Below are positions 5,043 to 46,655 of a DNA stretch of 64,000 nucleotides, in pieces. The stretch is from the sequence record OZ035785.1, one strand, 5' to 3'. A program made the position numbers and the translations under genes. The stretch is from Tequatrovirus BCH953P2. The notes below the pieces were generated by a model. That model had not been told where the DNA came from, searched no databases, and was given only the letters and a program-made list of their open reading frames with translations. Every line of letters begins with the position of its first letter. The first letter of the stretch is position 1.

Positions 5043-5078
5043 TTCATTCTCCAAATCCGTATCAGTAGTTGATAGTTG

Positions 5079-5109
5079 TATAGTACCATAGAAGAACAGG
5101 GATGTAAAC
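5079..5109 (-). promoter_or_regulatory. T4-type early promoter within a repeated promoter cassette
   Basis: Minus strand GTTTAC, 18 nt, TACTAT; about 60 bp nearly identical to cassettes at 31787-31850 and 46463-46545. Confidence 0.6.
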
Positions 5110-5191
5110 AGTTTTGTGAAAATTTTTTAGGGAATCCAAAGGGTCCAGAATCATCTCTTTTTCATAAGTATAGATTTATATTACTTGTATG

Positions 5192-5214
5192 AAAAAGGGA
5201 CCTGGAGGTCCCTA
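5192..5214 (-). terminator. intrinsic terminator after gene 43
   Basis: Minus strand GGGACCUCCAGGUCCC stem-loop followed by UUUUU. Confidence 0.6.
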
Positions 5215-5225
5215 GATTTATTCTA

Positions 5226-7922
5226 TCAGCCAAACAGGAAGTCTAACGAAGCTTTTTCTTCATAGTCCATGCCAGCCGATTCACACATACCCGCAAGCGG
5301 TTTAACAAACGATTTTTGGAACAAAGTTGAGTGGTCAATCCAAGATAGTACATCAGAACGAATTTCTTTTGGAAGTTCTGTACCCGACGGCCAAGCAATG
5401 CACTTGTCACCAAATGGATTTCCTTCACGTAATGGAAGAACCATTACTTTATTTCCATCCAAAATTGGAGCTACACCCAGACCACTAACAGCTCGACGAT
5501 AAGTTAGCACACCGCGAATATGGAACGGGCATTTAAATCCTGGCCAACCTTTATCATCATATTTCGCTATATCGTTCGCAGTTTTTACTTCAGCAATAAC
5601 TTTATAGTCGAGTTGACGATATTCTTTCTCGAAGTTCTTGTAATATTCTTGGACAGACTCTTCACCTTCCTGAAGAATACGACGAATACTTTCTTCGAGA
5701 GCTTCTTGTACTGCTTTTGGTGTTGAACTCTGCTGAGTTTCCATACCCATGATTTTTAGATGTGGTTCAGCAAATCGCTTATCTTCCATATCATAAACGT
5801 TCAGAGCATAACGCTTTTTCGCTTTCCAAAATCCACCAACACCCTTTGAACCAAGTGGAGGGCAAGAAATAGCTTCACGGTCCATATGCATCAGATGCTC
5901 GCGGTTATTCATATAATCACATAACTCACGATATGCAACATCAATCATAGGTTCCATCTTTTTCTTACCGAACTGATTCATGAATTCAACTAAATCGTTC
6001 TGCTCTTTGAATCGGTCAAGACCAACTTTTTCAATAACTTTATCTACACAAACATATACCGAATCAGTATCACCCGCGGCAATGAAATCTTCACCATCAG
6101 TTCCACATACTTTATTTAGATATTCATTAATTTTACGAGCAATCCACTGAATACCAACTTGGCCGAAAATTGTGATAGCAGTAGCATTTCGCAAATCATA
6201 GTAACGGAAATGAATATTACCAAGAGCACCATAAAGACTGTTAATAAGAATTTTACGGTTCAGCTGATTTGTGTTAGCAAGTGTAGCTGCTTTTTCACAT
6301 TCCTCAATCAGACTATTGAGAACGGATTCGGTGTAATTCGATAGTTCATTTAAGAAATCATCACTGAACTTAACATATCGTTCAACTTCTGGTTTAGTTG
6401 AACAAGACCCTGCGCCTTTCATAATAATCTTTTTAATAGCTTCGGCATTCATTTCTTCAGCGAACATTTTCTTTTTCCAGTCTTTACGCTGGAAAAATAC
6501 TTTAGCGATTTCCTTTGGAATGATACCTTCTTGATGCTTATCATACATCCATCCATTCGGAGAACAAGAATATTCATCACTCGGTTTAGGAGCTGTTCCT
6601 GCAATATATTCATGAATTGGATGAACTTTAAACTGCCCACGAATAGTCTCAGGACTAATGTTAACCTGACGAATAATGCTCGGATACAGAGACGTCAAGT
6701 CAAAACTCATAATATATCGACGAGCAATTGGTTTAGGTTCAAACACAAATGCACCCGGAAAACTCTGTTTAACGTGCGAACCCTGTTGAGGAATAACCTT
6801 ATGTTCACCTTTCAATGAGTTAAAAATAATAGCATCCCAAGTTTTAATAGGACTCATTACACCAGAAAAAGGCATTTTAGCATAATAAGACATACTTAAA
6901 ACTAGATCGATAAACCCGCGAATTTTATCAATTGCTTGAACTGATTCTACGTCAATGATGTTATAACTAATGTATCGTTGATGATTAGTCTCACGAAGTT
7001 TATTAATAGGACCGTCGTATGGTAATTTACCTTTTTTGGTTTCATGTTGAGCAACTGATTCCAAAGAGAATGACGGCAAATTAGTAAATGCGAATTTCTT
7101 ATACAAATCTAAATAATCAAGAATAGATACGCCATCAATAGAATAAATTTCTTTGCTACCGTACACATTTTGAATTAGTTTAGATTTTACTCGACCGATT
7201 GGAGAGAAACGTTTCATACTGCGTTCACCGAGAACCATTTTAACGCGATTCATGATATACGGAACGTCAAATCCCTCAATATTCCAACCAGTAAAAATAG
7301 CAGGTCGTTTCTGTTCCCAAAGATTGATATATTCCATGAGCATATCACGCTCATTATCGAATGGCATATAAATTACTCGGTCAAGAATTTCTTGAGGAAC
7401 TTCATCACCACCTTCACAGTCAAGCTTAGCAGCTAACTTTGCATCCCATTTTGATACTGAACCGTACATTGAATTCAAAAGGTCGAAAACATAAAAACGG
7501 TCATCAATTGAATCGTAATGAGTGATAGCATCAATTTCATATTCAGCTTTCATTGGGTCAGGAAATTTATCACCAGTAACCTCAATGTCACAGTTAGCTA
7601 CACGAACAAATTTTCGGTCATAAACAATTTCTGAACCATATGTATCACTAATGTAAGCGAGTTTAAAATCGTTCATACCGAGAGCTTCGAGACCGATGTC
7701 TTCCATTCGCTTCATCCAGTCTCGTGCATCTTTCATTGATGGAAATTTTTGAGGAGCGCAATTTTTACCATAAATGTCTTTGTACTTTGACTCTTCCTTA
7801 CAATGCCTAAACATAGTCGGAAGATATTCTACTTCACGAGTACGTTCCTTTCCGTTTTCATCAATATAACGTTCAACAATGTTATTTCCGACTGTTTCGA
7901 TAGAGATATAAAATTCTTTCAT
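5226..7922 (-). CDS. 43: DNA polymerase gp43 (family B)
   Basis: 898 aa; exonuclease and polymerase motifs (SLYPS, DTDS); MKEFYISIETVGNN N-terminus. Confidence 0.97.
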   Translation of the reverse strand: MKEFYISIETVGNNIVERYIDENGKERTREVEYLPTMFRHCKEESKYKDIYGKNCAPQKFPSMKDARDWMKRMEDIGLEALGMNDFKLAYISDTYGSEIVYDRKFVRVANCDIEVTGDKFPDPMKAEYEIDAITHYDSIDDRFYVFDLLNSMYGSVSKWDAKLAAKLDCEGGDEVPQEILDRVIYMPFDNERDMLMEYINLWEQKRPAIFTGWNIEGFDVPYIMNRVKMVLGERSMKRFSPIGRVKSKLIQNVYGSKEIYSIDGVSILDYLDLYKKFAFTNLPSFSLESVAQHETKKGKLPYDGPINKLRETNHQRYISYNIIDVESVQAIDKIRGFIDLVLSMSYYAKMPFSGVMSPIKTWDAIIFNSLKGEHKVIPQQGSHVKQSFPGAFVFEPKPIARRYIMSFDLTSLYPSIIRQVNISPETIRGQFKVHPIHEYIAGTAPKPSDEYSCSPNGWMYDKHQEGIIPKEIAKVFFQRKDWKKKMFAEEMNAEAIKKIIMKGAGSCSTKPEVERYVKFSDDFLNELSNYTESVLNSLIEECEKAATLANTNQLNRKILINSLYGALGNIHFRYYDLRNATAITIFGQVGIQWIARKINEYLNKVCGTDGEDFIAAGDTDSVYVCVDKVIEKVGLDRFKEQNDLVEFMNQFGKKKMEPMIDVAYRELCDYMNNREHLMHMDREAISCPPLGSKGVGGFWKAKKRYALNVYDMEDKRFAEPHLKIMGMETQQSSTPKAVQEALEESIRRILQEGEESVQEYYKNFEKEYRQLDYKVIAEVKTANDIAKYDDKGWPGFKCPFHIRGVLTYRRAVSGLGVAPILDGNKVMVLPLREGNPFGDKCIAWPSGTELPKEIRSDVLSWIDHSTLFQKSFVKPLAGMCESAGMDYEEKASLDFLFG

Positions 7923-7962
7923 AGATATTCCTTAGTTTATAGCCCGAGTTATTAGGCTCTTG
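7923..7962 (-). promoter_or_regulatory. gene 43 translational operator hairpin
   Basis: mRNA reads GAGCC-UAAUAACUC-GGGCU followed by AAGGAA and AUG; matches the known gp43 autoregulatory hairpin with loop AAUAACUC. Confidence 0.8.
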
Positions 7963-7982
7963 ATATATTATACTCCAATTAA

Positions 7983-7996
7983 GGGGCCGAAGCCCC
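7983..7996 (-). other. C(UUCG)G tetraloop RNA hairpin
   Basis: GGGGC CGAA GCCCC on plus = GGGGCUUCGGCCCC on the transcript; intercistronic between regA and 43. Confidence 0.6.
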
Positions 7997-8000
7997 TTGC

Positions 8001-8369: not shown

Positions 8370-8370
8370 T

Positions 8371-14614: not shown

Positions 14615-14640
14615 TATATCAAACTCCGTATAAAGCTAAA

Positions 14641-14654
14641 GGGCCGAAGCCCTT
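14641..14654 (-). other. C(UUCG)G tetraloop RNA hairpin
   Basis: GGGCCGAAGCCC overlapping the a-gt stop codon. Confidence 0.6.
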
Positions 14655-15856
14655 TATTTTGTAATAATGTCAAACTGTTCTTTAAAGCAGAAGCTTGAAT
14701 CTTGATGCTGATACAAAAATTCATATGCTTTTTCTCGCTCACGGTCATAAAGAGCTCGGTCAGATGACAGTTCTTTAATACGCTCGAATGTTGATTCCAT
14801 GTCATTTTCATCAAACCAAACGATACCGCTATCATGCGAGGTCAAAGGAGTATTATCAACACGGAATTTTAAATTTTCGCCAGTAGATTTCCAAAATACC
14901 GGAATTGTTCCACATGCACCAAGCTCGAGGTGAGTATATTCTAAAGAGCGCTGTAGATATTTTTTATCCAACTTACTCAACTGATAACCAAATCCAGATT
15001 TACTCATACGTTCAAGCATTTCGCTATTTACATAACGATCGAGAATTTGCGTTGGTAAATTAGGAGCAATTTTAATTTGGTCTACTTGATGAAGACGATA
15101 ATACTCGTATGGAATTCCTTTTTCTTTAATAGGAATGAACGCTGGAGAACGTTCCAGACCTTCCATAATAGTACTTAGTCCTGCAGGTTTAAGATGTTTT
15201 TCGTGAAAATCAAACATCTGATAAAAACCTTTCCATGTAGTCGTACGACCAATCCAACGGTTGATATTCATGTTAATTTCAGAAACATCTTTCCAGTAGG
15301 TTGATCGAACCTTCGCAATATCCATAGGAGGCTGAAAGTTGTATACGGTCGGTGCTTCTTCAATATCATCAAACAGAGAAACTGTTTCTGGATACCATTC
15401 TTTCATCAGAACTTTATTAAAATCGCCATTATCAGAATGGCTAAAAATAACATCAGCTCGACGAACAGTTTCTTCTAATCCCAAATTTCGACGCAAAGAA
15501 AGAGAAGAATGGTCATGTTGATAAACTACAACACGAACCGAAGGTTTAATGTTATCAATAATTTTTTTATAGTTATTAATAGTGTCTTCTTCAACTGAAG
15601 TAGCAGGAACTGAATTGATAATTAGAATATCACAATCATTTACCAGCTTAAGTGTTTTATCGTATTCTTTTGCCAATAAAACCGGAATTGAAAATGATTT
15701 ATAATCATGCGCGCAATTACGGGTAAATGATTTATCTTTAGCATAAACCAAAGTTACTTCATGACCATTTTTAATAAACCAATCACGCTGCTCAAGAGAA
15801 AATTTAGTTACACCACAACCTTCAAGACCTCGAGCCATAAAAATACATACTTTCAT
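14654..15856 (-). CDS. a-gt: DNA alpha-glucosyltransferase
   Basis: 400 aa; MKVCIFMARGLEGCGVTKF N-terminus and overall match to T4 alpha-gt. Confidence 0.95.
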   Translation of the reverse strand: MKVCIFMARGLEGCGVTKFSLEQRDWFIKNGHEVTLVYAKDKSFTRNCAHDYKSFSIPVLLAKEYDKTLKLVNDCDILIINSVPATSVEEDTINNYKKIIDNIKPSVRVVVYQHDHSSLSLRRNLGLEETVRRADVIFSHSDNGDFNKVLMKEWYPETVSLFDDIEEAPTVYNFQPPMDIAKVRSTYWKDVSEINMNINRWIGRTTTWKGFYQMFDFHEKHLKPAGLSTIMEGLERSPAFIPIKEKGIPYEYYRLHQVDQIKIAPNLPTQILDRYVNSEMLERMSKSGFGYQLSKLDKKYLQRSLEYTHLELGACGTIPVFWKSTGENLKFRVDNTPLTSHDSGIVWFDENDMESTFERIKELSSDRALYDREREKAYEFLYQHQDSSFCFKEQFDIITK

Positions 15857-15880
15857 TTAATATCCTCATTGTTTTGGTTT

Positions 15881-17977: not shown

Positions 17978-18017
17978 ACATTATCCTCAATTACGTTAAA
18001 ATTTTATTATCCAAAAA

Positions 18018-18033
18018 GGGCCGAAGCCCTTAG
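18018..18033 (-). other. C(UUCG)G tetraloop RNA hairpin
   Basis: GGGCCGAAGCCC adjoining the stop of the 18030-18230 ORF. Confidence 0.55.
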
Positions 18034-18230
18034 CTAAACTTTTTGGCACCCTTCCAGCCTTCATACATCATTGCGGCTGATATTAATATTGCTCCTGAGC
18101 AACTTGAATATTTGTGATTCCAAAACCAGTTTAGAAAAACTTCATCATCAATACCTTGGGCTATCATATTTTCAAAGAACTGACGACGAGCTTCGGCAAT
18201 TCGCTGCGATAATTTAGATTCAGGATTCAT
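18030..18230 (-). CDS. hypothetical protein
   Basis: 66 aa ORF. Confidence 0.4.
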   Translation of the reverse strand: MNPESKLSQRIAEARRQFFENMIAQGIDDEVFLNWFWNHKYSSCSGAILISAAMMYEGWKGAKKFS

Positions 18231-19638: not shown

Positions 19639-20109
19639 TTAATCATGTTTCCACACCCCATCGGTATTTGACCAAAGTCGCTGATTATCTGATCCTCGCC
19701 ACAGCTTTTTAGTCGGAAGATTTTTCTCATACTTCCCATCAATAATAACATCAACATATTTAAGCATTTCTAGTTGTTTAATATCTTCAAACTTATATCC
19801 TGTCCACAACCAAATGCTTTTATTGGGATAAAGATTTTTTACTGTTTGAACAATGCAATGAATAACATCCCGGTTATCAGGATAGAGAGGGTCACCTCCG
19901 GTTATAGTCAATCCTTCTATATAATCATTATTCAAACATTCAATTAATTGTTCTAGTGTTTCACCAGTGAATGGAATACCATTTCTAACATTCCATGTTG
20001 ATTTATTATAACACCCTTCGCATTTATGCAAACAACCTGTAACGAAAAGAACGGTCCTGCAGCCAGGGCCATTCACAAAATCACAGGGATAAAATCTATC
20101 GTAATTCAT
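19639..20109 (-). CDS. nrdG: anaerobic ribonucleotide reductase activating protein (radical SAM)
   Basis: 156 aa; cysteine cluster CLHKCEGCYN. Confidence 0.9.
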   Translation of the reverse strand: MNYDRFYPCDFVNGPGCRTVLFVTGCLHKCEGCYNKSTWNVRNGIPFTGETLEQLIECLNNDYIEGLTITGGDPLYPDNRDVIHCIVQTVKNLYPNKSIWLWTGYKFEDIKQLEMLKYVDVIIDGKYEKNLPTKKLWRGSDNQRLWSNTDGVWKHD

Positions 20110-21923
20110 TGATGCTTAACCCTATGCATGATTTCTTTATTTTTACCGAGATTAAATCCGCGTTCGTTCGGGTTTCCAAGATATCCGCATGTTCTTCTTA
20201 TTGTGTTCATCTTTTTAGGATCAGTTTCTCCACAAATAGAACAAACAAATCCGTTTTCAGTAGGAGTCATTTCATGGGTACTTCCGCATGTAAAACATTT
20301 ATCTACTGGCATGTTAACACCAAAATAATCTAAATGTTGTGCAGCATAATCCCATACGGCCTCAAGACCTTTTAAGTTATTTTTCATATCAGGAAGTTCA
20401 ACATAAGAAATGTGACCACCTGTCGCAATGAAATGATACGGCGCTTCACGAGAAATCTTTTCAAACGGAGTAATATTTTCTTCTACTGAAACGTGGAAAC
20501 TGTTAGTGTACCAGCCTTTATCGGTAACATCTTTTACGCTTCCATATTTTTCTGTATCGAGTTTACAGAAGCGATAACAAAGGTTTTCAGCAGGAGTAGA
20601 ATATAAACTAAAAGCAAATCCGGTTCTTTCAGTCCACTGTTTAAGATGAGCATTCATTTTAGTTAAAATTTCTCGTCCAATATCACGACCGACAAGAATA
20701 TTCAATTCGTGAATACCAATGTATCCTAGGGACACTGAACTTCTACCGTTTTTAAATAACTCAATTATGTCGTCATCAGGTTTAAGACGAACCCCGAATG
20801 CACCTTCTTGGTAAAGAATAGGAGCAACAGTAGCTTTAACTCCTTTTAAGGAACTAATTCTACACATCAAAGCTTCAAAACACAAATCCATTCGTTCATT
20901 GAATAATTCAACAAATTTCTGTTCATTGAACTGTGTTCCAATATAAGAATCTAACGCGATGCGAGGAAGATTCAATGTTACAACACCAAGATTATTACGT
21001 CCATCAAGAATTTCATTACCAGTCGAATCTTTCCATACGCTCAAGAAACTACGGCAACCCATTGGAGAAACAGGAACAGATGAACCAGTGATAGCTTTAT
21101 TGTTCTTAGCTGAAATAATATCAGGATACATCCTTTTGCTTGCACACTCTAGAGCAAGCTGCTTAATATCATAGTTCGGATCGTCTTTGTAAAGATTAAC
21201 GCCTTCTTCGACGAACATAACAAGCTTAGGGAAAATAGGAGTTATCCCATCACGACCAAGACCTTTAATACGATTTTTCAGAATTGCTTTCTGAATCATT
21301 CGTTCAGTCCAGTCAGTTCCCGTACCAAATGTAATTGTTACAAAAGGTGTTTGCCCGTTTGAACTAAAGAGAGTATTTACTTCATATTCATAAGCTTGGA
21401 ATGCATCGTATACGTCTTTTTCTGTTTTAGATTGAGCATAATTCAACGCATCAGCGATTTGCCATTTTTCTGCATCTTCAATATGTTTTGCATAGGTGCG
21501 TTTAACATAAGGAGAAAGTACTTTATCTACATTCGCAAAAGTCGTTCCGCCATATTGATGGGAAGCAACCTGTGCAGTAATTTGTGCCATAATTGCAGTA
21601 GCAACACCGATTGATTTAGGAGTTTCAATCTGTGCATTACCGAGCTTAAATCCGTTCTCAAGCATTCCTTTTAAATCTACTAAACAACAATTAGTAAAAG
21701 GCAATGATATACTGTAATCTAAATCATGAAAATGAATTAACCCGGCATTATGAGCATTTACAATATGACTTGGAAGAATACTGCAAGCGATATGTTTAGA
21801 AACAATACCGGCCATTAAATCTCTTTTTGTTGGAAAGACACGAGAATCTTTGTTGGCGTTTTCGGTATTTAATTCTTTATCTTTATTTGAAATAAAATTT
21901 AAAACATCTTTCTCTAAAGACAT
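20106..21923 (-). CDS. nrdD: anaerobic ribonucleoside-triphosphate reductase, uninterrupted
   Basis: 605 aa contiguous ORF with C-terminal glycyl radical and zinc-ribbon region; no intron. Confidence 0.95.
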   Translation of the reverse strand: MSLEKDVLNFISNKDKELNTENANKDSRVFPTKRDLMAGIVSKHIACSILPSHIVNAHNAGLIHFHDLDYSISLPFTNCCLVDLKGMLENGFKLGNAQIETPKSIGVATAIMAQITAQVASHQYGGTTFANVDKVLSPYVKRTYAKHIEDAEKWQIADALNYAQSKTEKDVYDAFQAYEYEVNTLFSSNGQTPFVTITFGTGTDWTERMIQKAILKNRIKGLGRDGITPIFPKLVMFVEEGVNLYKDDPNYDIKQLALECASKRMYPDIISAKNNKAITGSSVPVSPMGCRSFLSVWKDSTGNEILDGRNNLGVVTLNLPRIALDSYIGTQFNEQKFVELFNERMDLCFEALMCRISSLKGVKATVAPILYQEGAFGVRLKPDDDIIELFKNGRSSVSLGYIGIHELNILVGRDIGREILTKMNAHLKQWTERTGFAFSLYSTPAENLCYRFCKLDTEKYGSVKDVTDKGWYTNSFHVSVEENITPFEKISREAPYHFIATGGHISYVELPDMKNNLKGLEAVWDYAAQHLDYFGVNMPVDKCFTCGSTHEMTPTENGFVCSICGETDPKKMNTIRRTCGYLGNPNERGFNLGKNKEIMHRVKHQ

Positions 21924-28445: not shown

Positions 28446-28453
28446 AGTGTTCC

Positions 28454-29356: not shown

Positions 29357-29757
29357 TTTTCAATTTTACTAAATACACAGAATATGATGGAAAAGACTAT
29401 ATAAGCACCGCATACAGATTGAACTAATACCATTCCAAAGAACCAAATAATATTATCAAACCATGTCTGTTTTACGTCGAAAGGACGTAAACTTACAGTA
29501 ATATTATCACCTTTTTCTATTGAAGAATACATCTCTGGCGAAATATATTCGCTAAATCTATAACCGTCTTTGAGTTCATATACGGCAATAAACGATAAAC
29601 TAGACCCCTTTCCTTGAGTTCCTGTAAGGGTATTAACTACAGTAACATCATAATCTTTATAATGCATATAATCATTAATAGCATAATAACCATATGCAAT
29701 TACTATACATAAACAACATATCAATAAATTCAATCTTTTAATTATCAACTGTTTCAT
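29353..29757 (-). CDS. membrane protein
   Basis: 134 aa with hydrophobic segments at both ends. Confidence 0.45.
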   Translation of the reverse strand: MKQLIIKRLNLLICCLCIVIAYGYYAINDYMHYKDYDVTVVNTLTGTQGKGSSLSFIAVYELKDGYRFSEYISPEMYSSIEKGDNITVSLRPFDVKQTWFDNIIWFFGMVLVQSVCGAYIVFSIIFCVFSKIEN

Positions 29758-29812
29758 AATAATCTCAATTAAAAGGGCTTAGAACCATTATACCATCCTT
29801 GGTATAAAGCGG

Positions 29813-30340
29813 TTATGCGAGTACCGTCTTTAACCGTTCTTCAAACTTCCGAAGAGTGTTCTGGCGTTCAGCTCTTTGCTTTTTGTAAGTTTCAATACGC
29901 TCTGAAATGAGAGTGTATCGTTCATTTACTGATTCTTTCATAAAATCAGGAATTTCACGAGAAGCTTTAATCTCATCAAATTTATCAATAACAGCTTGCT
30001 CTTCAGCAATTAAGTTATCATACATCAAAATATCTTTCTTGATGAACTCAATATCTTCTTGAGTTACACGAGATAATTTAGATGCTTTATCCTTTTTGTA
30101 CTGTTCGTTAGTATCACGAGACCAGTGTAATGTACGATTTTTATTCGTATTCTTGTAAATTTCTACAATACCAATCTCATCAATAATAACGATCCAATTC
30201 CAACGGGATTTGTAAATTTGTCCTCCATCAACAGTGATTTCACCTCCGATTGAGATGTCATTAAAGAACTTGCTTTGTGCTTCAGATTTAAATTTACCAT
30301 CGTTGTAATTTACCAGGTTGAAAATATCTTTAGCGTTCAT
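29813..30340 (-). CDS. hypothetical protein
   Basis: 175 aa; early promoter and RBS directly upstream. Confidence 0.5.
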   Translation of the reverse strand: MNAKDIFNLVNYNDGKFKSEAQSKFFNDISIGGEITVDGGQIYKSRWNWIVIIDEIGIVEIYKNTNKNRTLHWSRDTNEQYKKDKASKLSRVTQEDIEFIKKDILMYDNLIAEEQAVIDKFDEIKASREIPDFMKESVNERYTLISERIETYKKQRAERQNTLRKFEERLKTVLA

Positions 30341-30369
30341 TTTGTGTTCCTCCGTAGTTGATAGGGTAA

Positions 30370-30398
30370 TAGTACCACGGAAGAACAGTCTTGTAAAC
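30370..30398 (-). promoter_or_regulatory. T4-type early promoter
   Basis: Minus strand GTTTAC, 17 nt, TACTAT. Confidence 0.55.
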
Positions 30399-30400
30399 CA

Positions 30401-30715
30401 CTAAAAGAAACTTCTTTCACAATTTTTTCCACTGAACCAAGCGCTCACTGCTTTCTTAGTCTCAGGAGCAGTGTTATCCATAAACCATTCAAAGGCAGCC
30501 TTTTTATGATTCTGGAGGGCTTCTCGGGCTTTAATCTGCTCACGGTCTATTAACACTAACATATGAGCCTTTCTTGTCACCAAGGGCTTCTTATGATTTT
30601 TTGAATACTCCCAATCATTTGTCCATCGCATCGTTGTTGCGAATTGAAGTACAGCTTCTTTAATTTTAGTTTCGTAAATTTCACGAGCCTTTGAGTATAA
30701 CATCACTACCTCCAT
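30401..30715 (-). CDS. hypothetical protein
   Basis: 104 aa ORF. Confidence 0.45.
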   Translation of the reverse strand: MEVVMLYSKAREIYETKIKEAVLQFATTMRWTNDWEYSKNHKKPLVTRKAHMLVLIDREQIKAREALQNHKKAAFEWFMDNTAPETKKAVSAWFSGKNCERSFF

Positions 30716-30805
30716 TTACCAGTTTAATTCTAGTCATCTTTTTGATGGCGGTCCATATAATCTATTTCTGAACTGCCTTTTTGTCATAGAAGTCCTCTTA
30801 TGAAT

Positions 30806-31774
30806 TTATTTCAGAAGAGTAACCTCAGCGATTTCTTCCCAACCGTTTTTGTCGGTCATAATAAAGTCAGCAAGATAAAGAGCAGTACGCAGTGAAACAT
30901 TGCGTAAACGATTAACATTGACTTTCATCCATGATAATGCTTTATAAGTTTCTTCATCAGAAAGACCGCGCTTTTGCATCATGTCGGTTGAAAGAATAAC
31001 ATCTTCAACCCTGACCATAATTTCTTCATTAGTGTGAACACCCAAATCTAAATAAACTGAGCGGGACACTAATGCTTGTAAATGTGGAGCAAGTTTAGTA
31101 CCACGGTCTAATTCGCGGTCAATGTCAACGTTTGTGATAAAAACAATCGTTCCTTTAAATTCAAACTCACGCTCAATGCCTTTTTCTTCTAAGTAAGAAG
31201 ATGCAGTGCTCCAGCAGACTTTACGGGTCTCTCCAGTGTCCAGAGCAGCTTTTAGAAGATTAAGAATGTCCATATCAGAGAAAACATCCACATCATCAAT
31301 CAAAAGGACAGAATTCTCTTCACGATTATTCCAAAGCTGTTCATAAAGACCAATACCAGAGATTTTACCATTAATGCTTTTATATTCAATGTATCCAATA
31401 TCATTTGCTTTATTTAAAGCTTTATCTAAAGAATGCGTTTTACCAATACCTGCTGCACCAGAGATAATTAATGAACGAATGTTTCCGTTAATAATACCAT
31501 TCGTCATCATTCCCATAACATTAAATCTTTTATTAATGCGGGTTTTCATATCTTCATACGATTCTTTAACTTCTTCAACTTTTACACCATCATATGAAAT
31601 GTCTGATTTGTAAACCCAAACACCGCGACGTTTACCGTCAATTTCAACAAAAACTTTACCATCTCCTTGTGCATCTACCGGAGCATTATCTGGGAACCAT
31701 TCACCTAAGAGCTCAAAAGTTCCAGAGATTTCTTTACCGAAGTAGATACCCTTATTGATAGTTACAGTTTTCAT
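30806..31774 (-). CDS. P-loop NTPase
   Basis: Walker A GAAGIGKT, Walker B LLIDDVD; track start is TTG, likely ATG at 31774. Confidence 0.6.
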   Translation of the reverse strand: MKTVTINKGIYFGKEISGTFELLGEWFPDNAPVDAQGDGKVFVEIDGKRRGVWVYKSDISYDGVKVEEVKESYEDMKTRINKRFNVMGMMTNGIINGNIRSLIISGAAGIGKTHSLDKALNKANDIGYIEYKSINGKISGIGLYEQLWNNREENSVLLIDDVDVFSDMDILNLLKAALDTGETRKVCWSTASSYLEEKGIEREFEFKGTIVFITNVDIDRELDRGTKLAPHLQALVSRSVYLDLGVHTNEEIMVRVEDVILSTDMMQKRGLSDEETYKALSWMKVNVNRLRNVSLRTALYLADFIMTDKNGWEEIAEVTLLK

Positions 31775-31808
31775 TTTATTCTCCAAATCTGTATCAGTTG
31801 ATAGTTGT

Positions 31809-31838
31809 ATAGTACCATAAAGCTTTATGCTTGTAAAC
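31809..31838 (-). promoter_or_regulatory. T4-type early promoter within a repeated promoter cassette
   Basis: Minus strand GTTTAC, 18 nt, TACTAT; cassette near-identical to 5055-5110 and 46463-46545. Confidence 0.6.
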
Positions 31839-31862
31839 CGTTTTGTGAAAAATTTTTGAAAT

Positions 31863-31886
31863 AAAAAAGGGAGCCCGAAGGCTCCC
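31863..31886 (-). terminator. intrinsic terminator with UUCG loop
   Basis: Minus strand GGGAGCCUUCGGGCUCCC followed by UUUUUU, right after the nucleotidyltransferase stop. Confidence 0.6.
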
Positions 31887-31888
31887 TA

Positions 31889-32902
31889 TCATTTATAATA
31901 ACTTCGGTGGTTTTCAAGATAAACCCTCTCAAGGAAGTCATCCCAGAAACCCATGTCTACTTTTTGCTGCATACCGTTCTTAGAAGCTTCAGTAGATGCT
32001 GCTTCTACTTGATCGACCACATCTTCCAAAAACTCTTGAACCATTTTAAATGGATGTTTACCCAACTTCACGTCGAGAATAAATGGAGCGTCTTGAAGTG
32101 GATAAACTAAGTCACCAGTTTTGTAAATTTCCAATAGTTGAAGTCCACCACGGCAGGCATGGCTCAGAGCTTTCCAATCAATGCCTTCATTGGCTTCGGC
32201 CTTACGAGCACGTTCACCGTATTCAGCATCTAATTTGTTCAGTGACTGCTTAAGCTCAATAAGAGAAAGCGTTGTCTGATATTTACGACCCAACACAGTG
32301 TAGAACGTTTGTGGGCCTGTTTTCTCATGATTATGGAACACCCATTCACAGAATTCGTTTTCTGGAAGACGATGCTTAATATCTTCAACTTTAGTGCGAC
32401 GCTGCTTAATAGAACCATCTTCTTGGTAATCAACCCATTGCTCAGGGATTTGATTAACTACTTTCAATACATCACGTAATGCAGCCAAACGAGAACCCTT
32501 GACACCGTATTTAGAAGCTTGCTTGCGGACATATCCTAAATATGATTTCATGTTAGTCGTATAAAAACGAGAACGGTTGTCTTGAATAAACTTCCACACA
32601 TCAGGCAAATCAGATTTAACCACTAGTTCAGGTGGAGTATGAAGCATATCCAATGCTACAGTTTCACCATCTGCTGCTAATTTAAAGAAATACTTAAGAC
32701 TATACAATTCGTGGTCAATATCATCTTTAGTGTTTTTAGATGATGTGTTGTTAGTGTTTTTACTCATATGCTCTTTAACATTTCCGATAAGAATATCACG
32801 AGCAGGAGGAACAAAAATTTCTTTAAAATCTACATCAGATTCTGGGGTAGAAGTTCCATAAAGATGACTACCAAAATAGCTTTTCATTACTGTTTTCATC
32901 AT
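31889..32902 (-). CDS. nucleotidyltransferase-fold protein (Pol-beta superfamily motif)
   Basis: 337 aa; N-terminal GS-x10-DVD (FGSHLYGTSTPESDVDF) typical of the NTase fold, followed by a helical C-terminal region. Confidence 0.5.
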   Translation of the reverse strand: MMKTVMKSYFGSHLYGTSTPESDVDFKEIFVPPARDILIGNVKEHMSKNTNNTSSKNTKDDIDHELYSLKYFFKLAADGETVALDMLHTPPELVVKSDLPDVWKFIQDNRSRFYTTNMKSYLGYVRKQASKYGVKGSRLAALRDVLKVVNQIPEQWVDYQEDGSIKQRRTKVEDIKHRLPENEFCEWVFHNHEKTGPQTFYTVLGRKYQTTLSLIELKQSLNKLDAEYGERARKAEANEGIDWKALSHACRGGLQLLEIYKTGDLVYPLQDAPFILDVKLGKHPFKMVQEFLEDVVDQVEAASTEASKNGMQQKVDMGFWDDFLERVYLENHRSYYK

Positions 32903-33360
32903 TCAGCCTTATATTCAATAACAGGACATACTTTAGCTTTACGAGCTTTTAAAAATTCGACGATAATAGATTTCTTGGGTTGAATAGGAGGTAAACCTTT
33001 ATACGCCCTATCAATATTTTCTACATGTAAAGCATAATCCTTTTTCCATTTATAATCTTTATATTTTTCATGCAGTTGTACAGGAATAACAAATGAACCG
33101 ATAATAAGTAAAACAAGCAAAATGGCAAGTATAAATGCTGATGGAATAAGAGTCCATAAACTACCAAAAATAAGCCATTTCTGTATGATTTCTGCGCAGA
33201 TGATAGTTAGACCTACGAGTATAGTACATCCGAAAAAAGAAACGAAAAATGTAGGGATAACAATAGACCAAAAGTATGCGCACAGCGTCTTAGGTCGTTG
33301 CCATTCATCGTTAAACAATTTGAATAATTTATAGTGCCAAGAGTTTTCATTAATAATCAT
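32899..33360 (-). CDS. membrane protein with two predicted TM helices
   Basis: 153 aa with two long hydrophobic stretches. Confidence 0.5.
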   Translation of the reverse strand: MIINENSWHYKLFKLFNDEWQRPKTLCAYFWSIVIPTFFVSFFGCTILVGLTIICAEIIQKWLIFGSLWTLIPSAFILAILLVLLIIGSFVIPVQLHEKYKDYKWKKDYALHVENIDRAYKGLPPIQPKKSIIVEFLKARKAKVCPVIEYKAE

Positions 33361-33362
33361 AA

Positions 33363-33884
33363 TTATCCTTTCATTGAAGGCGTAACGGTTGTTAAATACT
33401 TAATCATAGCTTCAGCTTCTGATTTTGATAATGAAATTTCTCCATTGTTTTGACGAATAGAAATAAAATCCGGATGACGGTCACCACCAGCTTTTAAAAC
33501 ACACATATAAGTATCAGTTTCACCTTCAATATTTGAAATGATTGAAGCAGTTCCGCATGAATGTGGTTTTTGATAAATCAATACAGCTTTTCTTCCACCA
33601 TTTGACTGCTCATAGGCTTTTAATACATCAAACAAATCAGTTCTTTTATCAATAGCTAAGATGTTATTTTCATCTTCAATGTTAAATCCTTCGGATACTT
33701 CATAAAGCGTTACCCATAAATCACCGATGTCAATAACAGCATTTACTTTTCCACGGCTTTCAAGAGTATGACAAATTTTCTTGATTTCATCATAACTCAT
33801 TTTAATAATATCATCTCCTTGAATAAGGAAGATGTCATTTTTAAATTCAACGCGAATTAAACCGCTTCCACTTGAAATAAACAT
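33363..33884 (-). CDS. hypothetical protein, paralog of the next gene
   Basis: 173 aa; C-terminus SKSEAEAMIKYLTTVTPSMKG resembles NKDEAIALKTYLDSVIPTMISK of 33891-34424. Confidence 0.5.
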   Translation of the reverse strand: MFISSGSGLIRVEFKNDIFLIQGDDIIKMSYDEIKKICHTLESRGKVNAVIDIGDLWVTLYEVSEGFNIEDENNILAIDKRTDLFDVLKAYEQSNGGRKAVLIYQKPHSCGTASIISNIEGETDTYMCVLKAGGDRHPDFISIRQNNGEISLSKSEAEAMIKYLTTVTPSMKG

Positions 33885-33890
33885 ATTTCC

Positions 33891-34424
33891 TCACTTTGAA
33901 ATCATAGTTGGAATGACAGAATCAAGATAAGTCTTTAGCGCAATAGCTTCGTCTTTGTTTAATGTAATGATATGTGATCGAAAATCGTCAATTTGACGAA
34001 TAGATACTACATCTCCCTCTTCATAGCATTTTGACACATTTAAAATAGTTTCATCATTCTGATTACAGGAGTTAGTAATAATAGCATTACATTTTTTAAA
34101 CCATTTTAAATTATGTTTTCTTTTAGTAGAATCATAAAAATATTTAATCTTAGTTATAAAATTATCCCAATTATTAATTGATAAGCACATTGACTCACTT
34201 TTAATATTAAATCCTGGGCATGAAGAATAAAAATGAATTTTGTGCTCATCATTGATGCTTACTATTTTATCAGTATAAGCATATTCAATTTGGGTTAAAC
34301 GAACAATTTCACTAGGCGTAAAATATAACATATCATCTTCTTGCGTCAAACGATACATATTATTTACTTTTTCTATAGCCAATTCACCAAAAAGTGAACT
34401 AACTTCTAATACTAATCGTTTCAT
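33891..34424 (-). CDS. hypothetical protein, paralog of the previous gene
   Basis: 177 aa; see paralog note. Confidence 0.5.
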   Translation of the reverse strand: MKRLVLEVSSLFGELAIEKVNNMYRLTQEDDMLYFTPSEIVRLTQIEYAYTDKIVSINDEHKIHFYSSCPGFNIKSESMCLSINNWDNFITKIKYFYDSTKRKHNLKWFKKCNAIITNSCNQNDETILNVSKCYEEGDVVSIRQIDDFRSHIITLNKDEAIALKTYLDSVIPTMISK

Positions 34425-34425
34425 A

Positions 34426-34704
34426 TTAATCCTTTTTATTTGCGCTGATTTGTTCTAAAATTTTAGAGTATTCCTTTTTATCGGATTTACGTACAATCGA
34501 TACACAATAAGGCATACTGTCGGTGTCTTTAATAAAACGTTCTAAATGGCACTTTAATAAAATTTCTGGATTATAAAGAGTATACATCAAATTCCCAGTC
34601 GCTCCGCGATATTGACAAATTTCCACGGATTTGACATCATTCCATAAATTTGTTAAAACTAAGTCACCTACTTCTAATTTAGGAAAACTCATATTATTCA
34701 CCAA
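34426..34704 (-). CDS. hypothetical protein
   Basis: 92 aa ORF. Confidence 0.45.
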   Translation of the reverse strand: MVNNMSFPKLEVGDLVLTNLWNDVKSVEICQYRGATGNLMYTLYNPEILLKCHLERFIKDTDSMPYCVSIVRKSDKKEYSKILEQISANKKD

Positions 34705-34876
34705 TTAAAGTTTCAACAAAATTCACTAAATCGTTCTGGCGAGCGTCAACCTGTTTTTCATAGAAATCAGCAGCGCCATCATTTACTGCGTGATAAGCCA
34801 CATCATTTAAATCGGTATCGGCTTCACGTAAGTCATGAATAAGGTCCATCAACTTATTGGCTTGTTCACGGGTCAT
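34694..34876 (-). CDS. small acidic helical protein (paralog family)
   Basis: 60 aa; MTREQANKLMDLIHDL... Confidence 0.45.
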   Translation of the reverse strand: MTREQANKLMDLIHDLREADTDLNDVAYHAVNDGAADFYEKQVDARQNDLVNFVETLIGE

Positions 34877-35008
34877 TACATACTCCTTTGAATAATATCA
34901 ATAATGTTGTTCACCAGATTATAGGTAAACAAAGGATAATTATATTGAATCATCACATACACAACAAACAAAATTTTCATTCTCTTCTCCCCAGCAGTTG
35001 ACAAGATT

Positions 35009-35038
35009 ACTATACCATAACCTTATCAACTTGTAAAC
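35009..35038 (-). promoter_or_regulatory. T4-type early promoter
   Basis: Minus strand GTTTAC, 18 nt, TATAGT. Confidence 0.5.
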
Positions 35039-35040
35039 CA

Positions 35041-35214
35041 TTAAATGACGTTTTCAATAAAATTCTGAAGCTTTGTGTGAGCATCAACCATGATTTTCAT
35101 TTCTTCCTTTGCGAAAGCTGTACCTCTTTCCCGAGCAGAATACTCATAGTCAGAAACTGCATTAGCATATTCTTCAATTAGCTTCATTAAAAACATCTGC
35201 TTTTCAGTTTTCAT
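35041..35214 (-). CDS. small protein
   Basis: 57 aa ORF MKTEKQMFLMKLIEEYANAVSDYEYS...; not in ORF track. Confidence 0.35.
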   Translation of the reverse strand: MKTEKQMFLMKLIEEYANAVSDYEYSARERGTAFAKEEMKIMVDAHTKLQNFIENVI

Positions 35215-35398
35215 TATTCCACCTAATCATTTCAAGATATTGAACTAATTTAGCTTTAGATTTATCCAAATCCCTTTTAGCTGCTTCTATACCATCGTAT
35301 GAATATCCTTCACAATGCTCAACTGCTAATTGATATGAATCTATTTCAATATCACGTGCTAATTTAATGATTTTTTCAAACTGATCGCATGTTAGCAT
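35204..35398 (-). CDS. small acidic helical protein (paralog family)
   Basis: 64 aa. Confidence 0.4.
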   Translation of the reverse strand: MLTCDQFEKIIKLARDIEIDSYQLAVEHCEGYSYDGIEAAKRDLDKSKAKLVQYLEMIRWNNEN

Positions 35399-35400
35399 AC

Positions 35401-35604
35401 TTACACTCTCGTATTATGATCGATAATTTCATCAAGAAACATATCTAACGCTTCTAAAGCATTATCCACTTTAGTTTCAAAGTCTTTAATGCCTTTATTC
35501 GAAATACCCGATGAATACCAAGCAAAGTTAATGCGCTCCTCATCTGCTTTACGAATTAAAGCTACCAATTCCTTAATTTTATCAGCTTGTTCGATACTAA
35601 TCAT
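35401..35604 (-). CDS. small acidic helical protein (paralog family)
   Basis: Track ORF trimmed to [14 protein letters not shown]; TAATG overlap with upstream gene. Confidence 0.4.
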   Translation of the reverse strand: MISIEQADKIKELVALIRKADEERINFAWYSSGISNKGIKDFETKVDNALEALDMFLDEIIDHNTRV

Positions 35605-35792
35605 TATTCCACCACATATGAAAGAGAGAATATTGCACACGCCATGTGAGTTGCAACTTCATCACACATATTATAACGTTTCTTAAGAAGTTCTACAAGT
35701 TCTTCACTAGTAACTTCATCCATGTCGACGAAAAAATCACCATTAATGATGACGTAGATATTTCCTTCTTGATTGAGTGCTTCAATTTTCAT
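35604..35792 (-). CDS. small protein
   Basis: 62 aa from [11 protein letters not shown]; track ORF 35604-35939 is over-extended across an early promoter. Confidence 0.45.
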
Positions 35793-35820
35793 GATGTTCT
35801 CCTCTTTATCCGATGGTTGT

Positions 35821-35850
35821 ATAGTACCACAGCTCAAACGGAAAGTAAAC
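35821..35850 (-). promoter_or_regulatory. T4-type early promoter
   Basis: Minus strand GTTTAC, 18 nt, TACTAT. Confidence 0.55.
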
Positions 35851-35860
35851 CGGTAAAATG

Positions 35861-35883
35861 AAAAAGTCTCCCGAAGGAGACTA
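35861..35883 (-). terminator. intrinsic terminator with UUCG loop
   Basis: Minus strand AGUCUCCUUCGGGAGACU then UUUUU. Confidence 0.55.
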
Positions 35884-35886
35884 ATG

Positions 35887-36273
35887 TTATTCGAGGGAAA
35901 GAAGATACTTACTCTGGTAAAACATTCCAGTAATATCATCTATCGTGCTTTGGATGGCTGGAGGCATTTCTTTATAAATGCTGTTAGATTGGTCTAGTAT
36001 GCGATCAATCATTTTAATTGTGTCGGTAGGAAGTTTACTGGCATCTGGAATTGAAGGCGTGTATTTTCTACCAGAATACCCCAAATATTGCTCACCAAAT
36101 TTATCAATCAAATCTGGCAACTCGGAGAAAATAAAATCGTATGCTTTGTGTCTAGCATAATTTTTAGTTTCAAAATGTGCAGAATGAAAATAAGCTTGTG
36201 CAGCCATTAATAAACCTAAGTATTCATCTGCCTTTGAAGGTTTTCCACTTTGTGAAAAGTCGCTGAATTTCAT
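35887..36273 (-). CDS. hypothetical protein (rI-upstream position)
   Basis: 128 aa ORF. Confidence 0.5.
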
Positions 36274-42915: not shown

Positions 42916-42940
42916 TTTATCCCTCCAAGTAACTGTGAAT

Positions 42941-42974: not shown

Positions 42975-43944
<970 letters not shown>

Positions 43945-43948
<4 letters not shown>

Positions 43949-45261: not shown

Positions 45262-45282
45262 TCCTATTTACTCCAAGTAATA

Positions 45283-45298
45283 GGGGCCGAAGCCCCTT
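45283..45298 (-). other. C(UUCG)G tetraloop RNA hairpin
   Basis: GGGGCCGAAGCCCC between two minus-strand genes. Confidence 0.55.
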
Positions 45299-45302
45299 AT
45301 CA

Positions 45303-45896
45303 TTATTTCAGAGAATTAATATATTCCTGAACATCGGCAGAGGTAGTTTCAACCCCAGAAATATTACCGTTAAAGGTTTCAACTCGAGCAAGAGTATCTT
45401 CAATATCAACCTTAGTCAGCGCTGCAATTTCAACTACATCATCGGCAGTACTAATTCCAAGGGCATTTGCTGCACGAGTTTCACGGATATATTCCAATTT
45501 AACTGCAAGTTCTTGGCGAGCATCATCCAATTCAACTACTTTCTTGGCGATTTCAATTCGCATTTCAGCATAACCATCAGCTTTAGTAGTCAACTGTTCA
45601 GCTGTTCGACGATATAGCAAACCGAGTTTAGCATGCATTGTTACATCTTGACCTTCAGAAAGAAGCTTGCGAATTTCACGCTCTTTTGATTCGGCCTGCT
45701 TATTCTTTTCAATAACAAGTTCACGAATACGTTTTTCTTCATTAATAGATTTAACAGAAGCAGTTTTTAGGTCTTTAATTTTATCAAGCAGTTTTGCTGC
45801 TGCGGCAGTATACTGTTCTTCAACAGATAGATTTTTAGCCATAGCAGAACCAAGTTTAGTGCGAATAAACTCAACAATTTTCTTCAGTGTGTTCAT
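45303..45896 (-). CDS. coiled-coil protein
   Basis: 197 aa, long predicted alpha-helical coiled coil. Confidence 0.5.
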
Positions 45897-45941
45897 AGTA
45901 TTTCCTTTAGTTAATTAAGGGTTTTATAATCCGTGGGAGTA

Positions 45942-46118
45942 TTATACTCCGGATAGTTTGTAAACTATTTCAACATCGCCTTTTGCTGCTTTATAACCTT
46001 CAGCCCAAGATACAACCGAGTTTTTATCCGAAGATTCAAATTCTGGCATTGGGCTTTCGCCAATGTTCACGCAGTATGTTTCTTCATTTTCGTCGAACCA
46101 AATAATTAAAGTAGTCAT
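45942..46118 (-). CDS. small acidic protein
   Basis: 58 aa ORF MTTLIIWFDENEETY... with GGAG upstream; not in ORF track. Confidence 0.35.
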   Translation of the reverse strand: MTTLIIWFDENEETYCVNIGESPMPEFESSDKNSVVSWAEGYKAAKGDVEIVYKLSGV

Positions 46119-46186
46119 TTATTTCTCCGTTTCTGTATTTGTTTTGATAAGTCTATAATAACACCGTCCTTGGTGTTTGTACACAA

Positions 46187-46450
46187 TTATTTCATATTAT
46201 TGAAATATTCTTCTGCGATTTCGTCGTTATCATGGTAAACTTTAGAAGACAGTTTAACATAACTTTCAGCAGTGAACATGTTAATCACAACCTTTACAGT
46301 ATACCACTGACCATCTTCATTACCCATTACTGCGTAAGTTTCAAACATCGGATGATCAGGACCGATAACTTTAATATCATTCACTGTACGACCGAAATCT
46401 TCTGAAACACATTTCATAAAGAAGTTGAACAGTTCGCCGTAATTATCCAT
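46187..46450 (-). CDS. hypothetical protein
   Basis: Track ORF starts at TTG; ATG at 46450 with GGAG upstream inside the promoter cassette. Confidence 0.5.
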   Translation of the reverse strand: MDNYGELFNFFMKCVSEDFGRTVNDIKVIGPDHPMFETYAVMGNEDGQWYTVKVVINMFTAESYVKLSSKVYHDNDEIAEEYFNNMK

Positions 46451-46493
46451 TTCATTCTCCAAATTGTTTTCTGTATCAGTAGTTGATAGTTGT

Positions 46494-46523
46494 ATAGTAC
46501 CATGGAAGAACAGGGATGTAAAC
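46494..46523 (-). promoter_or_regulatory. T4-type early promoter within a repeated promoter cassette
   Basis: Minus strand GTTTAC, 18 nt, TACTAT; cassette near-identical to 5055-5110 and 31787-31850. Confidence 0.6.
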
Positions 46524-46655
46524 AGTTTTGTGAAAAAATTTTTTAAAAAGTTTTAGGGAATTCTAGGGTCAGGAGGGACAATTAAAAGGTAGGATAATAT
46601 ATTATAAAGGGTATAAACTAAATGATGCCCAGAGAGGCCCGGAAAGGCCTAGATA

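Follow-up and report, generated by a model that had tools for sequence, protein, structure and literature searches.

Early-promoter cassettes of the PeSL class in a Tequatrovirus genome and their probable role as portable homology for gene swapping

A PeSL (promoter-early stem-loop) is by definition an early-promoter cassette with a terminator-type stem-loop adjacent to the promoter on its upstream side. The PeSLs of the T4/PST pair are composed of the promoter TTTACW-N17-TAYWAT, an AT-rich upstream region, a Shine-Dalgarno sequence (SD) and an ATG (Comeau, Arbiol and Krisch, 2014; PMC4122927), and such T4/PST units have been described as recombination substrates near indels (PMC4122927; PMC2839356). 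A further mark of PeSLs is the formation of mini-circles excised by recombination between cassettes, which is assayed by inverse PCR, with infected cells or virions as template, as in PMC2839356. In RB49 and phi1, Arbiol et al. (2010; PMC2839356) placed crossovers either in the AT-rich region or in the stretch separating the -10 from the ATG; the same authors called the T-even elements analogues, not homologues, of the RB49/phi1 PeSLs, and raised but left undecided the idea of sequence-specific recombination at PeSLs. T4 early promoters are ‘uber’ UP/-35/TGn/-10 promoters with extra consensus regions (Hinton, 2010; PMC2988021).

The window analysed here, 64,000 nucleotides of Tequatrovirus BCH953P2 (OZ035785.1), is collinear with T4 21.8-88.1 kb, and its repeats are members of the T-even early-promoter/PeSL cassette class (Arbiol 2010; Comeau 2014; Repoila 1994). 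The initial annotation held that portable early-promoter units had already been described in T4-type phages, and the literature agrees, including that on the T4/PST pair (PMC4122927; PMC2839356); the phenomenon, the sequence anatomy and the shuffling model are all published for Tequatrovirus, and the finding is correct but ordinary. The five sites noted previously are all present, on the minus strand, which is the early-gene strand. Cassettes A, B and C are strong early-promoter/leader/RBS units of T4-like phages, their activity and starts being predicted. The features, in which “driven” likewise denotes a predicted relationship, are as follows.

Cassette A, 5032..5129, minus strand: A/T-rich tract, -35 GTTTAC at 5104-5109, TGG and -10 TACTAT at 5080-5085, 37-nt leader, SD GGAG at 5049-5052, ATG at 5040-5042; orthologous to the T4 imm.1 promoter (T4 about 27014-27100).
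ORF78, 4806..5042, minus strand: 78 aa, driven by cassette A, phrog_4189 match.
Terminator-like hairpin, 5197..5212, minus strand: GGGACC-TCCA-GGTCCC then a T-run, downstream of gene 43.
Cassette B, 31764..31861, minus strand: -35 at 31833-31838, -10 at 31809-31814, ATG at 31772-31774.
SD and RegB-consensus match of cassette B, 31774-31784, minus strand: GGAGAATAAAA.
nrdC.10, CDS 30806-31774, minus strand: driven by cassette B.
G+C-rich hairpin, 31868..31887, minus strand: AGGGAGCCTTCGGGCTCCCT and a T-run, about 20-30 nt 5' of the cassette B -35; extended fold 31859-31894, dG -17.2.
Cassette C, 46441..46547, minus strand: -35 at 46518-46523, -10 at 46494-46499, SD GGAG at 46457-46460, ATG at 46448-46450; orthologous to T4 70624-70715.
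e.8, CDS 46187-46450, minus strand: driven by cassette C.
Hairpin direct repeats of 36 nt, 92% identical, 46653-46688 and 47208-47243, minus strand.
ORF of 157 aa between these repeats, 46693-47166, minus strand: phrog_2280; absent from T4 and T2, about 130 nt 5' of cassette C.
Cassette D (variant), 30338..30398, minus strand: -35 at 30393-30398, -10 at 30369-30374, ATG at 30338-30340.
nrdC.8, CDS 29813-30340, minus strand: driven by cassette D.
Cassette E (variant), 50018..50078, minus strand: -35 at 50073-50078, -10 at 50049-50054 (spanned by an inverted repeat), ATG at 50018-50020, GGAGAATAAAA match at 50020-50030; T4 homology ends at 50058.
trna.4, CDS 49835-50020, minus strand: driven by cassette E.
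Cassette F, 50310..50372, minus strand: -35 at 50367-50372, -10 at 50343-50348, ATG at 50310-50312.
Internal virion protein gene, 50079-50312, minus strand: 77 aa, driven by cassette F, phrog_8111; ip6 in one relative's annotation, taking the place of T4 ipI.

The near-identity previously reported for 5055-5110, 31787-31850 and 46463-46545 was borne out by gapped local alignment: A (5032/5034-5129) and C (46441-46545) agree at 93/96 aligned bases with 9 gap columns, A (5032-5128) and B (31764-31857) at 82/93 with 5 gap columns, and B (31772-31861) and C (46448-46547) at 79/89 with 12 gap columns. From the ends of these alignments the repeats are therefore some 20-25 nt longer on each side than first delimited, giving units of about 100 nt. 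The variants at 30341-30400 and 50020-50080 are real, yet clearly more diverged (D against A, 40/47 identical; E against D, 37/43; gapped local alignments). When 15 early-promoter-like sites were scored pairwise over -65 to +55, A, B and C gave mutual scores of 41-66, every other pair containing one of them scored 24 or less and the top-scoring pair outside the trio was E/F with 33; the three are therefore far more alike than a shared promoter consensus explains. Exact direct repeats of at least 20 nt in the window were confined to the cassettes (32, 31, 24 and 23 nt) and to a pair of terminator hairpin families. In 30 first-order Markov simulations the longest repeat averaged 16.3 nt and never exceeded 18 nt, against 32 nt observed.

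The RBS, GTTTAC -35 and TACTAT -10 of the initial annotation were all found in A, B and C. The T4-type arrangement GTTTAC-N18-TACTAT is complete in A, B, C, D, E and F, with an extended -10 of TGG-TACTAT in A-D and TGA-TACTAT in E and F; an A/T-rich UP-like tract, AAAAATTTTTCACAAAAC, lies 5' of the -35 in A, B and C, and in these three the repeat continues through the GGAG SD to the ATG, as in PeSLs. Allowing at most one mismatch, GTTTAC-N18-TAYTAT matched the window 16 times, always on the minus strand, against 1.36 expected. Additional family members, overlooked before, have -10 hexamers at 50348, 35826 and 18874, with remoter ones at 27396, 35014, 39841 and 42946. A generic sigma-70 scan was non-discriminating in this AT-rich window (91 sites against 86.6 expected), and terminator hairpins alone were taken from its output. 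Like the T4 early promoters (PMC2988021), the cassettes have a UP-like A/T tract, -35, TGn and -10, and are intergenic, co-oriented with early genes and orthologous to T4 sites; unlike them, they show an identity of 93/96 through spacer and leader for which the class consensus cannot account.

Compared with the PeSLs of T4/PST (PMC4122927), the window shares the genus, the promoter consensus and the composition, and its copies are likewise multiple, in hyperplastic early regions and beside sites where close relatives differ by an indel or a replacement. With the hairpin at 31868-31887, cassette B is a canonical PeSL and, together with a tandem pair in T2, an exact fit. The window differs in that A, C, D, E and F are without a hairpin directly upstream, one being present at B and the 35826 promoter alone (D, E and F have none); the gene 43 hairpin, nearest to A, is 88 nt 5' of its -35 and so not adjacent to the promoter, and the nearest to C is about 99-130 nt away. 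A second difference lies in the genes downstream of B and C, which are conserved and not variable. With RB49/phi1 (PMC2839356) the likeness is in the proposed mechanism, in which recombination between direct copies deletes or inserts an intervening ORF, and in the placing of junctions, those at 31822-31871 and 5062 of the window being in comparable positions; the unlikeness is in the near-perfect TTGACA/TATAAT promoters and poly-G/poly-C stems of those phages. The T-even internal-protein non-coding blocks of Repoila et al. (1994), as recounted in PMC2839356 and PMC4122927, resemble E and F, which flank an ipI-type slot, with breakpoints in the promoter and in the conserved N-terminal internal-protein leader; as recounted there, these blocks are limited to two internal-protein loci, unlike A, B and C at imm.1, nrdC.10 and e.8.

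T4 itself has A/B/C-type units at matching loci, upstream of imm.1, nrdC.10 and e.8, and a 106-nt query of cassette A found 4176 places in 558 phage records, about 8 per genome; the copies are multiple, in direct orientation and dispersed in variable early regions, as in the PeSL class. A scan of IMG/VR with an exact 20-mer recovered 21 loci in a handful of contigs, with up to 6 copies in one genome, the exact-match requirement biasing this sample of alleles. An assembly artefact or chimera was rejected as the source of the repeats because T4, T2 and hundreds of records carry them at identical loci.

We consider it probable (about 85%) that the repeats are T-even early-promoter expression cassettes (PeSL with hairpin) that provide portable homology for gene swapping and patch exchange. 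Each would be a strong host sigma-70 promoter, having a UP-like tract, a GTTTAC(A) -35, TGG-TACTAT and a 17-nt TTTACA/TACTAT spacing, followed by a G-poor, unstructured leader ending in a GGAG Shine-Dalgarno sequence and ATG; judging from the sequence and from what is known of T4, unmodified host RNA polymerase would fire the cassettes immediately after infection. The GGAG(A)ATRAAA stretch is a match or near-match to the strong RegB cleavage consensus, so that the module would also carry a built-in early shut-off site; the consensus is that of PMC3014915, a match to it being the sole link to the cassettes, and GGAGRAYARAA has two occurrences in the window, where 0.32 would be expected, each of them coinciding with a cassette SD. 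As units of about 100 nt in direct orientation along the early region, the cassettes offer portable homology, and comparative patterns suggest that recombination between or within them inserts, deletes and replaces adjoining small genes and also swaps patches among cassettes.

Slot A exists in three states: 321 records have ORF78 there, 31 have a T2-type ORF unrelated to it, and T4 has nothing. About 57% of relatives have ORF78, whose N-terminus resembles a signal peptide and whose family (phrog_4189) is of unassigned function; T2 has an unrelated 83-aa ORF in its place, and the left junction against T2 (window position 5062) falls within the leader of the cassette. Against T4 the ORF78 indel is 240 bp, bounded by the 8-nt repeat ATGAAAAT at two start codons, and for this indel cassette-cassette recombination was rejected, the junction being ATGAAAAT microhomology. 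At the cassette B locus, T2 has an extra 486-bp ORF (the T2_95 slot) between two tandem PeSLs; window positions 31822-31871 align to both T2 copies, so that a single PeSL stands here in the window and in T4. The ipI-type slot at E/F contains an ip6-like gene in the window, ipI in T4, and ip7 and ip5 in T2. Indels or junctions of the PeSL type were thus found at slot A, the T2_95 slot and the ipII/ipIII and ipI loci, and with T4 and T2 as the two genomes compared, five of the 12 strong cassettes (A, B, P42946, E and F) contained breakpoints. No indel junctions were seen at C or D among the relatives examined, the flanks there being conserved, and most window indels against T4 consist of homing-endonuclease genes or are at a distance from cassettes.

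The proposal that the driven genes are recent acquisitions stood only in part. ORF78 at A and the internal-protein gene at F are variable, whereas 1099 phage records contain nrdC.10, T4-like phages of Klebsiella, Acinetobacter, Aeromonas and Vibrio among them, 567 contain e.8 (about equal to the 558 with cassette A), and nrdC.8 with its flanks is 97-99% conserved in every relative examined. With nrdC.10 and e.8 so widely conserved, the proposal therefore largely fails at B and C. Similarly, cassettes do flank variable genes at slot A, the T2_95 slot and the E/F internal-protein locus, but only A and F drive them, the variable content at B and C being upstream of the cassette. When the cassette-driven genes were searched against Pfam and PHROG, a function was returned for none except the internal virion protein (50079-50312), nrdC.10 giving weak sub-threshold AAA/NTPase matches only.

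Patchy sharing of alleles between cassettes points to ectopic exchange, as far as can be judged from sequence comparison in a small set of 8-9 genomes, five of them chosen via the exact 20-mer and hence subject to ascertainment bias. At locus A, the window and two other genomes have a spacer of e.8 type (ATCCC..), and T4, DalCa and three others have one of nrdC.8 type (AAGAC/AAGAA..); in T2, locus A is of nrdC.8 type all through to the ATG. The nrdC.8 leader of the window (cassette D) contains a trna.4-type patch, TACCCTATC, where five other genomes have ACAACTATC. In the window A and C differ by 3 mismatches, in five other genomes by 7-10, and window A has 2-13 differences from its own orthologues, mostly more than it has from C; A and C would be almost identical in the window genome because patches have been exchanged between cassettes. 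A stronger form, which we regard as doubtful, is that the dispersed cassettes evolve in concert by frequent ectopic gene conversion of spacer, leader and SD-RegB sub-modules, re-homogenising distant promoters (A = C), the family being a self-maintaining, integron-like insertion platform with a sigma-70 on switch and a RegB off switch. In its radical variant, a sequence-specific recombination activity, and not general homologous recombination, may target the cassettes.

It is unlikely that the likeness reflects only functional convergence or constraint from a long consensus, with no recent common descent, exchange or role in recombination. The T4 early-promoter consensus is indeed known well beyond the -35 and -10 (PMC2988021), GTTTAC, TGn and TAnnnT are common to all 12 or more early promoters of the window, and orthologous cassettes are kept at matching loci in hundreds of genomes. 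However, A and C agree at 17/18 bases of a spacer that is unconstrained, the locus A spacer has three allele types among relatives, each matching another cassette, and blocks of 4-5 adjacent differences (ATCC/AAGA; ACAAC/TACCC) switch together, unlike independent point mutations; the matrix scores of A, B and C and the indel junctions inside cassettes also argue against it. That the 35-45-nt leader is instead a cis-regulatory RNA (a riboregulator or RegA-like repressor site), making the three genes a post-transcriptional regulon, is highly improbable: the conserved block does run from -10 to ATG, beyond RNA polymerase contacts, and its SD-to-ATG stretch resembles a strong RegB site, but the leaders fold no better than shuffled controls (z -0.21 to +1.25), Rfam finds 10 tRNAs only and nothing at any cassette, for which reasons a structured leader RNA was rejected, the leader tolerates a 3-nt ACT slippage and a 6-nt insertion between copies and orthologues, and the RegB element is a short linear motif common to many early genes and compatible with expression cassettes.

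For the portable-cassette reading, the window supplies further examples and some evidence that cassettes have exchanged patches, and no new principle. The cassettes show the places at which T4-like phages take in, exchange and drop small accessory genes, among them anti-defence or exclusion candidates such as ORF78, beside imm/imm.1, and injected internal proteins, which makes them helpful guides to variable slots during annotation. In addition, they are predicted to be ready-made modules for strong early expression.

The window is collinear over its full length with ~21.8-88.1 kb of T4 (AF158101), passing through uvsX, gene 43, the nrdC.x block, tk, regB, e, the tRNA cluster, the internal-protein locus and the baseplate genes, and across 28000-36000 (8 kb) hundreds of Tequatrovirus genomes match at 95-97% identity. 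Because the early genes are minus-strand, the cassettes of the initial annotation have to be read as reverse complements. Many other differences from T4 are accounted for by homing-endonuclease genes (mobB, mobC, I-TevII, mobD, segC and others): mobB, mobC, I-TevII (nrdD being intron-less) and segC are missing, whilst mobD and segB are replaced by other sequence (sites at 15847-15872, 20089-20109, 21385-21388, 32903-33866, 47560-48548 and 56645-56650). A stretch of ~868 bp between nrdD and gene 49 (21864-22732) is without counterpart in T4 or T2. Ten tRNA genes were found by Rfam at 48107-49065, compared with eight annotated in T4, in an arrangement nearer to that of T2. Six 24-nt (8-aa) tandem repeats (GTTGAAGGTAATG.., 55835-56002) coincide with the C-terminal portion of gene 5, where gp5 has a beta-helix.

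The cassettes and their relatives are as follows.

5032-5129, minus strand: cassette A, before ORF78
31764-31861, minus strand: cassette B, before nrdC.10
46441-46547, minus strand: cassette C, before e.8
30338-30398, minus strand: variant D, before nrdC.8, clearly more diverged than A, B and C
50018-50078, minus strand: variant E, before trna.4, clearly more diverged than A, B and C
50348 (F, before a 77-aa internal-protein gene), 35826, 18874 and elsewhere: further family members

Cassettes A, B and C begin with an A/T-rich tract (AAAAATTTTTCACAAAAC) and the -35 GTTTAC, continue with an 18-nt spacer with TGG at its end and the -10 TACTAT, and finish with the leader ACAACTATCAACT(ACT)GATAC..TTTGGAGAATRAA and ATG. 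In gapped alignments, A and C are identical at 93 of 96 aligned bases, A and B at 82 of 93, and B and C at 79 of 89. When 15 early-promoter-like sites were scored against one another over the region -65 to +55, the three gave mutual scores of 41-66 and no other site exceeded 24 against them, the best pair elsewhere being E/F (33). Exact direct repeats of at least 20 nt in the window are confined to the A/B/C units (32, 31, 24 and 23 nt) and two terminator hairpin families; in 30 Markov simulations the longest repeat had a mean length of 16.3 nt and never exceeded 18. The motif GTTTAC-N18-TAYTAT, with up to one mismatch, has 16 matches, all on the minus strand, against 1.36 expected. Alignments and repeat statistics thus bear out the near-identical dispersed cassettes of the initial annotation, with units slightly longer than reported and on the minus strand, and its variants D and E are genuine, though further removed. 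The A and C leaders (GGAGAATGAAATG) also hold an out-of-frame ATG-AAA-TGA mini-ORF overlapping the true start codon (5040-5048 and 46448-46456, minus strand); B and most A orthologues have ATAAAATG there instead.

T4 carries a near-identical pair before imm.1 (~27014-27100) and e.8 (~70624-70715), and the B unit before nrdC.10. As a query, the 106-nt A unit found 4176 places in 558 phage records, ~8 per genome, and the exact -10/leader 20-mer reaches six copies in one related genome. T4 early promoters have been described as 'uber' UP/-35/TGn/-10 promoters with additional consensus regions, a description which the cassette elements match (PMC2988021). The promoter-early stem-loop cassettes (PeSLs) of the T4/PST pair, named by Comeau, Arbiol and Krisch, have the consensus TTTACW-N17-TAYWAT and share with the cassettes a composite of AT-rich region, promoter, SD and ATG that may also include a hairpin (PMC4122927). 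Elements of this kind had been described earlier for RB49/phi1 and, by Repoila 1994, for the T-even internal-protein loci (PMC2839356). By sequence the cassettes are orthologues of the early promoters of T4 itself and members of an already published class. Sequence and literature together point to promoter activity.

Hairpins and inverted repeats occur near several of these sites.

46653-46688 and 47208-47243: copies of a 36-nt G+C-rich hairpin (AAAAAGCCCCAACCTTTCGGCTGGGGCT), 92% identity
9922-9947, 14632-14657, 18009-18034 and 45275-45300: near-identical terminator hairpins AAAGGGCCGAAGCCCTTTAT, a family including a 22-nt exact repeat
50040-50067 (E) and 50334-50361 (F), minus strand: inverted repeats around the -10

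Strictly defined, a PeSL includes a terminator hairpin directly upstream. B (31868-31887, 20 nt from the -35) and the 35826 promoter have such a hairpin; the nearest terminator-like hairpins to A and C are ~90-130 nt off, and none was found upstream of D, E or F. Leader RNA folding gave no significant structure (z-scores -0.21 to +1.25), and Rfam matched tRNAs only. The strong RegB cleavage consensus GGAGRAYARAA has only two matches in the window (0.32 expected), both in the SD-to-ATG stretch, of B and of E (GGAGAATAAAA), with A and C one base off; the cassettes would thus carry a putative early shut-off site. At E and F, a 9-bp inverted repeat spans the -10 hexamer (GATAGGGTA-gtga-TACTAT-TACCCTATC and GATGAGGTA-gtga-TACTAT-TATCTCATC), the sequences differing with the symmetry kept, and T2 has the same arrangement. 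These repeats could be an operator, or form a hairpin in read-through transcripts, and may be the 'weaker AT-rich stem-loops' mentioned by Arbiol et al.

Behind cassette A, the 78-aa ORF78 (4806-5042, phrog_4189), which sits in the imm/imm.1 operon, is absent from T4 and found in 321 records, ~57% of the ~560 Tequatrovirus records; T2 and 30 others have an unrelated 83-aa ORF in this slot. Identity between the window and T2 runs across the promoter as far as ..TATCAACTAC in the leader (5062) and resumes at the imm.1 SD, which places the replacement junction inside the cassette. T4, which has no ORF here, differs by 240 bp, and copies of the 8-nt repeat ATGAAAAT at the two start codons mark the ends of this difference. 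In T2 and 43 other records, a 486-bp ORF, annotated in some as RNA polymerase ADP-ribosylase, lies at B between nrdC.11 and nrdC.10, with one of two tandem PeSLs on either side. Both copies in T2 align with window 31822-31871; the window and T4 thus have a solo PeSL, as recombination within the AT-rich region would be expected to produce. Upstream of C, the 157-aa ORF157 (46693-47166, phrog_2280) is missing from T4 and T2, present in 510 records and bracketed by the 36-nt hairpin direct repeats, an indel for which the terminator hairpin, and not the promoter, looks responsible. The ipI slot at E/F holds an ip6-like internal-protein gene (50079-50312), with breakpoints at the -10 of E and within the first codons past F. 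Neither ipII nor ipIII of T4 is present (42919-42926); the promoter at 42946 is instead joined straight to denV. This promoter has its orthologous counterpart in T4 downstream of gene e, and denV is only 78.6% identical to T4 over its 5' part.

In this comparison with two genomes, breakpoints touch 5 of 12 strong cassettes. The initial annotation was correct as to the class and the shuffling role. That the cassettes flank variable genes holds in part, for slot A, the T2 ORF at B, ORF157 upstream of C, E/F and 42946. To regard the driven genes as recent acquisitions was an over-reach: 1099 records carry nrdC.10, T4-like phages of Klebsiella, Acinetobacter, Aeromonas and Vibrio among them, and 567 carry e.8, about as many as cassette A, while the flanks of B, C and D show 90-99% identity wherever examined.

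The cassettes themselves appear mosaic when their loci are aligned across 8-9 genomes, a small sample partly ascertained via the exact 20-mer. The spacer at locus C is always ATC(C/T)(C/T)TGTTCTTCC, and that at locus D is AAGAC(C/T)GTTCCTCTG in five of six genomes, whereas the D spacer of the window, AAGACTGTTCTTCCG, combines this type with the A/C-type TTCTTCC. Several alleles exist at locus A: the window shares the C-type (ATCCC..) with two other genomes, T4 and DalCa share the D-type (AAGAC/AAGAA..) with three more, and T2 is D-type from the spacer right through to the ATG. The D leader of the window, TACCCTATC, is that of cassette E, compared with ACAACTATC in five other genomes. In these alleles neighbouring bases differ together, in blocks of 4-5. 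Alignment of A with C shows 3 differences in the window and 7-10 in five other genomes, and the window A differs from its own orthologues at 2-13 positions. Patches have thus moved between cassettes. From sequence and literature we infer both RegB cleavage and a recombination mechanism at the cassettes, and the patch movement is read as probable ectopic gene conversion or crossover between dispersed copies.
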